Shown here piece after piece: positions 19,668-22,279 of a stretch of DNA of 64,000 nt (positions within the stretch are counted from its first letter, which is position 1; the number at the start of each line of letters is the position of its first letter). The position numbers were made by a program, and so were the translations under genes. The stretch comes from Luteolibacter sp. (GTDB lineage: Bacteria; Verrucomicrobiota; Verrucomicrobiia; Verrucomicrobiales; Akkermansiaceae): assembly GCA_047605125.1 (NCBI GenBank), contig JASGGK010000004.1:163199-227198 (forward strand), given 5' to 3'. Below the pieces are notes generated by a model. It worked only from the letters and a program-made list of their open reading frames with translations. It made no database searches and was not told where the DNA came from.

Positions 19668-19746
19668 GTGATTAGGGGATTGGAGATTCGAGATAAGATC
19701 ATCGCGAATCCCTTTCCCTAATTTCAAATCTCATCTCCCCAATCTC
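19668..19746. repeat. Degenerate heptamer-array inverted repeat, atpA-atpG spacer
   Basis: Left arm gggattg gagattc gagataa; right arm cctaatt tcaaatc tcatctc cccaatc. Confidence 0.65.
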
Positions 19747-19762
19747 TTTTTAGCGAAGCAAC

Positions 19763-20617
19763 ATGGCCAACCTTCGAGACATCCGCCGACGCATCAAGTC
19801 GGTCAAGAACACCGCGCAAATCACCCGCGCGATGCAGCTGGTCGCTGCCGCCAAGATGAAAAAGGCGCAGGATCAGGCGCTGGCAGGACGGGATTATGCC
19901 CACAAGCTCAACGGCGTTCTTGAAGACATCGGCAAGAGCTTCGGTGAAGAAGCCACCCACGCCCTTCTCGAAAAACGCGAAGGCGACCGAGAGCTGGTGC
20001 TGGTCATTTCCACGGACAAAGGCTTGTGCGGACCGATCAACACCAACCTTGCCCGCGTCCTGCGTGCGAAGACTTCTCCAAGTGCGGATTTCGTGACCGT
20101 CGGCCGCAAGCTCCGCATGATGATCGAAAAAGTCGGCGGAACCATCCTCGCGGATTTCTCCGTGAAAGATCCGGTGCCATTCGCCGACGCCCGTTCCATC
20201 GCGACGCTGCTTTCCAAGCAGTTCCTGGAAGGTAACTATGACAAGGTTTCGATCGCTTACACCCGCTTCGTCAACACGCTCAGCCAGGTGCCGGAAGTTG
20301 TTCAATTGCTGCCCGTACAGCCACCGGCCCACGAGAATCACTATGACCGCCCCGACGTTGGCGGATTCCTCTTCGAGCCATCGCCTGCGGACGTTCTCGC
20401 GTCGATCCTGCCGCTCTACGTGAATTTCGAAGTCTTCCAAACCCTCGTCGAAGCCCGCGCTTCCGAGCACTCCGCACGGATGGTCGCCATGAAATCGGCG
20501 ACGGACAACGCGAAGAAATTCATCAAAGAGCTCACGCTCGAATACAACAAGCTCCGCCAGGGCGCCATCACCGCCGAGCTTCTCGAAATCACGACGGCCA
20601 TGAAGGCCATGGAATAA
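19763..20617 (+). CDS. atpG: F1 subunit gamma
   Basis: IKSVKNTAQITRAMQLVAAAK, ASEHSARMVAM, RQGAITAELLEI. Confidence 0.99.
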   Translation: MANLRDIRRRIKSVKNTAQITRAMQLVAAAKMKKAQDQALAGRDYAHKLNGVLEDIGKSFGEEATHALLEKREGDRELVLVISTDKGLCGPINTNLARVLRAKTSPSADFVTVGRKLRMMIEKVGGTILADFSVKDPVPFADARSIATLLSKQFLEGNYDKVSIAYTRFVNTLSQVPEVVQLLPVQPPAHENHYDRPDVGGFLFEPSPADVLASILPLYVNFEVFQTLVEARASEHSARMVAMKSATDNAKKFIKELTLEYNKLRQGAITAELLEITTAMKAME

Positions 20618-20623
20618 CCTTCA

Positions 20624-20723
20624 AGTTGCTAGTTGCTAGTTTTCAGTGTTCAGCAATGGACGAAAAACAGCACTGGCTCCCACGACTAAGACTGAAAACT
20701 TCAAAACTGAAAACTAGCACACT
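20624..20723. repeat. Heptamer-array inverted repeat, atpG-atpD spacer
   Basis: agttgct agttgct agttttc agtgttc ... actgaaa acttcaaa actgaaa actagca; 14-bp perfect match 20634-20647 vs 20706-20719. Confidence 0.85.
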
Positions 20724-20729
20724 TCCACA

Positions 20730-22193
20730 ATGAGCAACCAAGGAACCATCGTCCAGATCATCGGCGCCGTCGTCGATGCCGACTTCTCCAAGGCATCCAA
20801 GCTGCCTGAAATCTTCAACGCATTGGAAATCCAATACGTCCTCAACGGCGTGGACACCAAGCTCGTGCTTGAGGTTCAGCAACACCTCGGCGACGGCTGG
20901 GTGCGCACGGTTGCGATGTCCACCACGGACGGTCTGAAGCGCGGCATGACCCTCACCGACACCGGCAAGCCGATCGCCGTGCCTGTCGGCAAGCAGATCC
21001 TCGGTCGTATTTTCAACGTGACCGGTGACCTCGTGGACGAAAACGTGCCGCTCGCCGATGCTTCCCTGCGCGCTCCGATCCACCGTCCGGCTCCTCTCCT
21101 CACCGAGCAATCCGCTGCGGCTGAGGTGCTTCCGACCGGTATCAAGGTGATCGACCTCATCTGCCCGCTGCTCAAGGGTGGTAAAGGCGGCATGTTCGGT
21201 GGTGCAGGTGTCGGCAAGACCGTCGTCATCATGGAGCTCATCAACAACATCGCGAAAGCACACGGTGGTTTCTCCGTGTTCGCCGGCGTGGGTGAGCGGA
21301 CCCGTGAAGGTAACGACCTCTACTGGGAAATGATCGAGTCCGGCGTTATCTCGACCGAGAAGGACGAGAACGGCCACATCAAGCTCGGTGCCGACGGCAA
21401 CCCGGTGCTTGCCGAAGGTTCCAAGGTGGCGCTTTGCTACGGCCAGATGAACGAGCCGCCGGGTGCCCGTCTCCGCGTCGCCCTCTCCGCCCTCACCATG
21501 GCCGAGCACTTCCGCGACGAAGACAACCAGGACGTTCTGCTGTTCGTCGACAACATCTTCCGTTTCTCCCAAGCCGGTTCCGAAGTGTCCGCGCTTCTCG
21601 GCCGCACGCCTTCCGCCGTGGGTTACCAGCCGACGCTTTCCGAAGAAATGGCCGGTCTGCAAGAGCGGATCACCTCCACCAACAAAGGTTCCATCACTTC
21701 CATCCAGGCCGTTTACGTTCCTGCGGACGACTTGACCGACCCTGCTCCTGCAAACACCTTCGCCCACCTTGACGCGACCGTGGTGCTTGAGCGTTCCCTC
21801 GCCGAGCAGGCGCTCTTCCCGGCGGTGGACCCACTCGCTTCCACTTCCAAGGCCCTCGCTCCGGAAATCGTCGGTGAAGAACACTACCGCGTCGCCCGTG
21901 GCGTGCAGCTCGTGCTCCAACGCTACAAAGACCTTCAGGACATCATCGCGATTCTCGGTATGGACGAACTTTCCGATGAAGACAAGATGACCGTCTTCCG
22001 CGCCCGCAAGATCCAGCGTTTTCTCACCCAGCCGTTCCACGTGGCGGAAGTGTTCACCAACGTTCCCGGCGTGCTCGTCTCCATTGAAGACACCGTCAAG
22101 GGCTTCGCTGAAATTCTCGACGGCAAGCTCGACGACGTGCCGGAAGGCAACTTCTACATGAAGGGCGGCATCGAAGCCGTCGCCCGCGACTAA
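20730..22193 (+). CDS. atpD: F1 subunit beta
   Basis: [32 protein letters not shown]. Confidence 0.99.
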
Positions 22194-22200
22194 TTTAAGA

Positions 22201-22279
22201 AGTTTCAAGTTTTCAGTGTTCGGTTTTCAGGAAGAGTTCCTGACGCGGCCTGAAAACTTGAAACTGAAAACTTGAAACT
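22201..22279. repeat. Heptamer-array hairpin, atpD-atpC spacer
   Basis: 31-bp arms (22201-22231 and 22249-22279), 27/31 complementary, 17-nt loop; units agtttca/agttttc. Confidence 0.9.

Follow-up and report, generated by a model that had tools for sequence, protein, structure and literature searches.

The three spacers between the F1 genes of the ATP synthase (atp) operon of Luteolibacter sp. (Verrucomicrobiota, Akkermansiaceae; assembly GCA_047605125.1) each contain a hairpin element with two inverted arms of tandem 7-nt units. The elements lie in a stretch of 64,000 nt (contig JASGGK010000004.1, positions 163,199 to 227,198, forward strand), which is called the window throughout. In our assessment, with a probability of about 60%, they are cargo-less members of a class of heptamer-armed palindromic cassettes, residing in their slots as selfish or near-neutral DNA and probably cut by RNase III without a tuned role. 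The full form of this class carries a gene of the TIGR02436/PF05635 family (Avd-like, "23S rRNA IVS protein"), and its best-studied relatives are the intervening sequences (IVSs) of 23S rRNA that bear an open reading frame (ORF). Elements of the class occupy slots, namely tight junctions of co-transcribed genes and tolerant linkers inside proteins, and at a given slot they are replaced, reduced to one arm or switched in arm type between congeners. The heptamer hairpin is a real and widespread element, and is still unexplained. The F1 genes (assigned from Pfam and the ORF list) and the elements between them are located as follows:

18124-19665, plus strand: atpA (F1 alpha)
19671-19746, plus strand: atpA-atpG element, a weak hairpin with degenerate heptamer arms of GATTGGA/GATTAGG-type units and a short loop
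19763-20617, plus strand: atpG (F1 gamma)
20620-20722, plus strand: atpG-atpD element of the T family, with a left arm of AGTTGCT/AGTTTTC units, a loop of about 40 nt and a right arm of CTGAAAAC units ending in CTAGCA
20730-22193, plus strand: atpD (F1 beta)
22198-22282, plus strand: atpD-atpC element of the T family, with 34-nt arms that are 85% complementary and a 17-nt loop starting with GGAAGAG
22283-22693, plus strand: atpC (F1 epsilon)

The spacers are 97 nt (atpA-atpG), 112 nt (atpG-atpD) and 89 nt (atpD-atpC) long. A preliminary description of the window, made from the letters alone, had reported a 7-bp period in all three, and lag 7 was indeed the top autocorrelation lag in each, with z-scores against shuffles of 4.0, 4.7 and 4.4, respectively. 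Paired arms were recognizable in every spacer, the atpA-atpG copy being degenerate. The atpD-atpC element spans its spacer, beginning 5 nt past the atpD stop codon and reaching the atpC ATG. The 31-nt core of its arms (22201-22231 and 22249-22279) is complementary at 27 of 31 positions, and the right arm of this core stops 3 nt short of the atpC ATG, both exactly as described before. The 14-mer AGTTTTCAGTGTTC, said to be shared by two of the elements, is identical at 20638 and 22208, and it occurs 11 times in the whole genome.

Predicted RNA folding was strong for the atpD-atpC spacer (-41.1 kcal/mol, z -6.88, with 0 of 200 shuffles as good), moderate for atpG-atpD (-27.9 kcal/mol, z -2.41) and weak for atpA-atpG (-25.2 kcal/mol, z -1.55), where the arms are only 74% complementary. 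The atpA-atpG element is backed by hairpins of the same type, with ATTGGA-like units, at this junction in congeners. All three F1 junctions of the operon carry heptamer arrays, and the F0 junctions carry none. The loops of the atp elements (17-40 nt) contain no ORF, and thus no TIGR02436/PF05635 gene; since such a gene is present in the same class elsewhere, the atp copies represent the gene-less form.

The elements do not resemble intrinsic terminators, as the preliminary description had already held. A terminator scan called none of the three spacers, and the stems are A/U-rich and directly followed by a start codon, in place of the G+C-rich stem and U tract of a terminator. In an Rfam search of the spacers no family exceeded the threshold; sub-threshold matches of the atpD-atpC hairpin to miRNA precursors were dismissed as generic matches to long hairpins. 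Within the loop of the atpG-atpD element (around 20668-20680), a CTGGC/CTAGC segment co-varies across congeners with the GCCAG/GCTAG on the outer side of the left arm, and this segment may be a remnant of the end of another, nested element.

The atp elements belong to a class that is found throughout the genome. The host assembly (labeled G000; congener genomes and loci carry G and L labels) comprises 3.09 Mb in 36 contigs and is 89% complete. Using a strict criterion of at least 17 of 21 lag matches and comparing lags of 5, 6, 7, 8, 9 and 10 nt, we found 41 arrays at lag 7 versus 2, 4 and 5 at lags 5, 8 and 10; the counts at lags 6 and 9 are inflated because of codon periodicity. An inverted partner was present within 1.5 kb for 12 of the 41 lag-7 arrays and for none of 38 lag-6 control arrays. 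A looser census, which relies on our own crude gene caller (80% coding), gave 74 heptamer elements, made up of 23 inverted pairs and 51 solo arrays. Random placement with respect to gene junctions had been named in the preliminary description as an outcome that would speak against it; 19 of the 23 pairs fill same-strand junctions, the others being divergent (two), convergent (one) or within a gene (one). Paired elements fill the spacer and mostly leave 0-20 nt to the flanking stop and start codons. For all intergenic elements together, the ratio of same-strand to divergent to convergent positions was 41:7:2, versus about 27:12:11 expected from intergenic length by our own arithmetic. Like short tandemly repeated repetitive (STRR) sequences, the tandem heptamers are thus enriched over other periods and lie mostly between co-directional genes.

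At least eight heptamer unit types occur side by side in the host genome. The T family has 10 copies, the atpG-atpD and atpD-atpC elements among them, and the D family has 8. In both families the full-length arms and their non-repeat termini are conserved, with an inner boundary of the form GAAGA...TCTTC, but the loops differ. Arms of 30-35 nt recur in full, with their termini (AAGTTGCTAG...CTAGCAACTT and AAGTGCCGGG...CCCGGCACTT), at 8-10 unrelated loci within one genome. No target-site duplication flanked the 10 T copies, as read from their aligned ends, and no transposase gene adjoined the elements examined, so that neither the duplication nor the transposase-bearing parent of a miniature inverted-repeat transposable element (MITE) was found. 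A reverse transcriptase, considered as the missing enzyme by analogy of the Avd-like protein with diversity-generating retroelements, was rejected, as there was no PF00078 match in the 89%-complete host genome.

Kinship with gene-bearing cassettes is evident within the host genome itself. All four of its TIGR02436/PF05635 genes are enclosed by inverted heptamer arrays, and all are located at same-strand junctions, namely between two ABC ATPase genes, between nuoI and nuoJ, between thiE and pfkB (where translation of the arms yields the end of one protein and the beginning of the following one), and at one further junction. This is in keeping with the statement of the preliminary description that similar heptamer arms flank small cargo genes, such as TIGR02436-type genes, in housekeeping operons. 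In the D family, one copy bears the gene and at least seven do not. In ten congeners, about 35 of 44 TIGR02436-type genes have inverted arms with a best lag of 7. The arms of the three atp spacers matched those of gene-bearing cassettes in congeners with scores of 12, 15 and 21, compared with a 95% level of 10.5-11 for the shuffled null. The best match of the atpA-atpG arms was the nuoI-nuoJ four-helix-bundle cassette of congener G015, and those of the other two spacers were T-armed cassettes of congeners G033 and G010; for atpD-atpC, the best match was the T-armed four-helix-bundle cassette L073 (score 21 versus a null 95% level of 10.5).

Cargo was also found at an F1 junction. Among 80 atp loci sampled across the phylum, that of a Candidatus Udaeobacter contig (L169) has, precisely at the atpD-atpC junction, TTTTCGA arms that pair in the predicted fold and a TIGR02436 gene in antisense orientation (75 bits). 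A relative with cargo between such arms, whose absence was to have counted against the preliminary description, therefore exists. That description had proposed that the atp elements are either empty cassettes of a repeat-bounded insertion/excision system or RNA processing sites. Their kinship with gene-bearing cassettes held up; neither machinery for insertion or excision nor any target duplication or movement was seen. Identity with a 23S rRNA IVS (helix 25 or 45) was rejected, as the elements sit in atp mRNA. No 23S IVS was present in five complete relatives, whose 23S genes are 2834-2868 nt long without an insert; the host assembly contains no 23S gene.

Junction content was compared in 47 congeners. 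At atpG-atpD, 18 of the 47 have a hairpin (9 of type T, 8 of type D and 1 other), 7 have a one-arm remnant and 8 an insert of 550-660 nt, the remainder having short or solo arrays. Even sister species differ at this junction, with a hairpin in G006 versus a one-arm remnant in G003. Nine T elements at atpG-atpD (from the host and 8 congeners) align across both arms and the loop and are thus orthologous. The D versions have neither arms nor loop in common with the T versions, which argues against drift of one into the other at this site. The atpD-atpC junction is almost always heptamer-built, either with hairpins of four or five types or with solo runs of 1 to about 8 copies, and some of the solo arrays differ only in copy number (TTTCAGC with 1-5 units; AAATCTG/AAATCTC with up to about 8). 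Across the Verrucomicrobiota, F1 junctions repeatedly carry hairpins or arrays.

T and D types are interspersed across both the atpD and the UvrA tree. Cassettes that bear a gene of one protein clade are mostly found at orthologous loci, and these orthologous cassettes differ in their arms (D in most species and T in G033; GATTGGA versus GTTATTA at nuoI-nuoJ), so arms also change in place. Copy numbers per genome range from 0 to 76 for T and from 0 to 40 for D, with reversed-pattern controls near zero, which looks like bursts of families. The median T share was 0.74 for genomes with a T hairpin at atpG-atpD versus 0.125 for those with a D hairpin (Mann-Whitney p 0.02, uncorrected). That the arm type of a site follows the dominant family of its genome is suggestive, with 4-5 phylogenetically independent pairs and no significance after this control. 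Four-helix-bundle clades and arm types are also associated (21 changes versus 32.9 in shuffles); cognate specificity of protein and arm was rejected as the reason, since the association mostly reflects vertical descent at orthologous loci.

Other genes were observed at the same junctions. Seven of the eight atpG-atpD inserts are about 550-585 nt long; the two that were read hold a lipoprotein gene, and the other five match them in size. A lipoprotein-like gene of about 160 aa lies between atpG and atpD in several Verrucomicrobiales (L014, L015, L131). The eighth insert (658 nt, L020 of G008) holds a Phd/YoeB-like toxin-antitoxin pair with no clear heptamer arms, and a 64-aa antitoxin-like ORF, likewise with no clear arms, is found at atpD-atpC in L020 and L119. 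At atpA-atpG, inserts of 410-654 nt were seen in L137, L150, L162, L167 and L169 (Chthoniobacterales and others). Those read (L137, L150 and L169) share a conserved gene for a protein of about 190 aa, which by eye resembles ORF6N/KilA-type DNA-binding proteins and has no NCBIfam match.

Heptamer arrays are also translated inside genes. In-frame arrays were found within purL, a 1903-aa double UvrA-like gene, alaS, mutS, a urea-carboxylase-like gene, an RHS gene and leuS, the last of these in the window:

6862-6893, minus strand: D-type solo heptamer array, in frame in leuS (from Tandem Repeats Finder, the sequence, Pfam for leuS, and the census)

The double UvrA-like gene (G000:C4:126692-132403, L038), located just upstream of the window, has six in-frame arrays, two of which are whole T hairpins. 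The hairpins are translated as peptides such as SSLKTEN, and the D-type hairpins of congeners as SSLITDH. At these linker positions congeners have D hairpins, other array types or nothing, and one site was found with five array types in nine species, all in the same reading frame. The array type is discordant with a UvrA tree built from the flanking columns. Local recombination was rejected as the source of a shared arm type, as the flanks of the UvrA sites in genomes with the same type are no more alike than the gene average. In purL (L002, corresponding to G000:C18:1-2943), four in-frame arrays lie at three linker sites; at one of them, a forward AGTGCGG array is joined to a non-complementary reverse CCAATCT array by AAGA-TT-TCTT only.

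The long stems raise the matter of RNA processing, and the window encodes the relevant enzyme:

36350-37141, minus strand: RNase III gene (rnc), with Pfam Ribonuclease_3 and dsrm; also in the ORF list

The preliminary description had placed this gene at 36350-37033, and the gene calls extend it as given. The heptamer-stemmed IVS of Coxiella burnetii, with the same gene family, has a stem that is cut by both Coxiella and Escherichia coli RNase III (PMC4990558). From this precedent and the presence of rnc, RNase III cleavage of the atp stems is plausible. In a search of sequencing runs for RNA evidence, no run matched more than 8% of the sampled words, and such matches came from conserved parts of relatives. 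The further suggestion that the hairpins tune the 3:1:3:1 ratio of the F1 subunits fared less well. Species with the same F1 enzyme differ freely in what these junctions contain, which makes such a role unlikely, and a sense-strand excess of G·U, the signature expected of RNA-level selection, was not found. In 31 hairpins of known orientation, the stem mismatches on the sense strand were 25 G·U versus 34 A·C, and thus nothing indicates that the pairing is maintained for the sake of the mRNA. As judged from comparative sequence, a conserved role of the hairpins in setting subunit ratios is unlikely.

Together, the above observations are consistent with the following sequence of events. The elements would persist as selfish or near-neutral DNA, and their arrays would be altered through slippage. 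Complementarity of the two arms may be maintained through DNA-level processes such as template switching or conversion, and not through selection on the atp mRNA. After transcription, RNase III would probably cut the long stems, that of atpD-atpC (about 31-34 bp) in particular, and the resulting separation of cistrons would be a by-product and not a device for tuning stoichiometry.

Several points weigh against this interpretation. No enzyme, target-site duplication or movement was seen, and the placement statistics lean on the crude gene caller. Cleavage of these particular elements by RNase III is presumed by precedent. Congener G034 (94% complete) has 30 D arrays with no TIGR02436 match, and the gene is therefore unnecessary for keeping arrays. 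In addition, the arms of the orthologous T elements are 0.71-0.73 similar, a figure inflated by the alignment of repeats, compared with 0.58 for four-fold sites of atpD and 0.48 for the loops. This hints at constraint or homogenization, in which case "near-neutral" may be the wrong term.

A more ambitious version of the cassette interpretation, which we consider unlikely as it stands, is that heptamer hairpins with or without the Avd-like gene form a self-maintaining system that works without a transposase. The arms at many slots would be renewed or converted in concert, their type would follow the active family of the genome and not phylogeny, and the hairpins would colonize operon junctions and in-frame linkers of essential genes, with the four-helix-bundle protein or a host factor recognizing the repeats. 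A contrasting account, about which we are similarly doubtful, is that the arrays grew in place by polymerase slippage and gained a second arm by quasi-palindrome template switching. They would then never have been inserted or derived from a cassette, and four-helix-bundle genes would merely prefer to land in such hairpins. The solo arrays at atpD-atpC that vary in copy number only, the in-place change of arm type at orthologous cargo cassettes (G033; nuoI-nuoJ) and the lack of any transposase or target duplication fit this account, as do the arrays of G034 with no TIGR02436 gene, and slippage as an explanation for the bacterial heptamer excess is cited in the literature (PMC4692102). It is harder to reconcile with the recurrence of whole arms, including non-repeat termini and the GAAGA/TCTTC boundary, at 8-10 unrelated loci, with copy numbers of 0-76 among congeners against near-zero controls, or with T and D elements at atpG-atpD that lack common arms and loop.

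Two functional explanations appear weaker. That the hairpins are selected RNA elements of the atp operon (RNase III sites, or structures for translational coupling or stability that set 3:1:3:1) is improbable in our view, even though exactly the three F1 junctions and no F0 junction are occupied, hairpins or arrays recur at them across the phylum, rnc is present in the window, and arms are more conserved than four-fold sites. In the same direction, no Shine-Dalgarno motif precedes any atp gene, as read directly from the sequence, and the atpD-atpC stem extends from 5 nt past the stop codon to the start codon, so that a terminating ribosome would open it. On the other side, the stoichiometry of F1 is fixed, whereas a hairpin at atpG-atpD is present in only 18 of 47 congeners, G006 and G003 differ, and a lipoprotein gene or a toxin-antitoxin pair takes the place of the hairpin in some congeners. 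The required change in ratio alternates down, up, down along the operon, whereas the structure is alike throughout; the same elements occur in unrelated operon junctions and inside coding sequences, and the G·U excess is absent. We regard it as highly improbable that the arrays are operators bound by a trans-acting protein that controls downstream translation, such as the pentameric four-helix-bundle protein, ribosomal protein S1 or a Csp/Csr-type protein. Control of this kind has been proposed for the TAACTGA repeats of Beggiatoaceae, and as described there the arrays end 0-20 nt before start codons without a Shine-Dalgarno motif (PMC4679880). Operators would also agree with the association of clades and arm types and with the tendency of the atpG-atpD arm type toward the dominant family of the genome. 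The former is largely vertical descent at orthologous loci, however, and the latter loses significance under phylogenetic control, while G034 retains its 30 D arrays without the gene and many unit sequences coexist within one genome. Selfish or near-neutral, cargo-less cassettes remain our favored explanation for the F1 spacers.

Transcript ends in this organism seem to involve ordinary terminators. Just 3' of atpC (22716-22757), inspection by eye showed a G+C-rich stem with a T run behind it; the simple terminator scan missed this structure, probably owing to its long loop.

The findings bear on two puzzles. To our knowledge, no long simple repeat other than the heptamers is over-represented in bacteria, and their excess has lacked an accepted explanation since 1990. 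The 23S IVS proteins form a very large family, and we know of no function for it. The atp locus and its counterparts in congeners tie these heptamer repeats to the 23S IVS protein family in ordinary operons. They also provide a tractable comparative system, in a genus with cultured members, where the same junctions are empty, half-filled, occupied by different arm families or gene-bearing, and where arrays are translated within essential enzymes. For annotation, caution is advised: long hairpins in atp, nuo or liv operons of Verrucomicrobiota are likelier to be resident repeats than regulatory structures, and odd low-complexity inserts in UvrA, PurL, AlaRS, MutS and LeuRS can be translated repeats.

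Among known systems, the ORF-bearing 23S rRNA IVSs of Coxiella burnetii, Leptospira and Brucella are alike in having a long terminal stem with tandem heptamers and an AGAAGA-like purine motif, and in carrying a PF05635 four-helix-bundle gene in the loop, transcribed within the host RNA (PMC4990558); PF05635 itself has been recognized as Avd-like (PMC10053308). The elements described here differ in that they reside in an mRNA operon or within a protein-coding sequence and not in rRNA, the atp copies are gene-less, and RNase III cleavage, shown for the Coxiella stem (PMC4990558), is predicted only. A literature search for TIGR02436 returned no paper.

The repeat-gene combination also recalls repetitive extragenic palindromic (REP) sequences, their bacterial interspersed mosaic elements (BIMEs) and the REP-associated tyrosine transposases (RAYTs), together termed REPtrons, in which many intergenic palindromes are gene-less and a few copies flank a small gene. 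RAYT is a known HUH nuclease, whereas we know of no catalytic activity for the four-helix-bundle protein; REPs are uniform within a genome, whereas heptamer arms are of many types and their loops vary. The host has a REP family and a RAYT-like gene of its own, and these form a sequence family separate from the heptamer elements. The gene (76.9 bits; cut-off 80) lies at G000:C1:251549-252155 (L236) between inverted GGAGCGCCGG...CCGGCT REP-like palindromes that are abundant in the genome. Genes for GxxExxY proteins (TIGR04256) likewise lie in inverted repeat arms, at G000:C2:260456-260908, C5:25351-25821 and C10:35458-35963 (L233-L235). The arms at C2 and C5 consist of GAACGCAGAT-like units with a period of about 10, those at C10 are different, and at least a dozen further hairpins of the host genome have GAACGCAGAT-type arms and no gene. 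With the RAYT, GxxExxY and TIGR02436 cassettes, the host genome thus has three parallel systems of a gene in a hairpin accompanied by many empty hairpins. MITEs are similar in being short, non-coding and multi-copy, with terminal inverted repeats and lineage-specific bursts; the heptamer elements differ from them in having no visible target-site duplication, no transposase-bearing parent and no conservation of internal sequence between copies.

Intergenic heptamers have been described in Xanthomonas (GGGAATC), Nostoc (GGGGAYT, STRR), Geobacter (a heptanucleotide repeated four times) and Beggiatoaceae (TAACTGA) (PMC4692102, PMC2700814, PMC4679880). As here, they lie mostly between co-directional genes and often just before a start codon, some copies are inside genes, 70-75 convergent (inverted) pairs occur in Xanthomonas, and length and sequence vary between close relatives. 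In those genomes one unit dominates and no cargo gene is tied to it, whereas at least eight unit types coexist here, in families with defined termini and a direct link to TIGR02436 cassettes. The proposal that the atp hairpins represent an undescribed system therefore has to be narrowed, as published work already covers heptamer repeats, their inverted pairs between co-directional genes, and IVSs that combine a heptamer stem with this gene family (PMC4692102, PMC4679880, PMC2700814, PMC4990558). What we did not find in print is a general tie of gene-less heptamer hairpins to cassettes in mRNA operons, the slot behavior of the elements, or in-frame copies. New here are the in-frame arrays inside purL, the uvrA-like gene, alaS, mutS and leuS, with the same linker sites carrying different arm types in different species.

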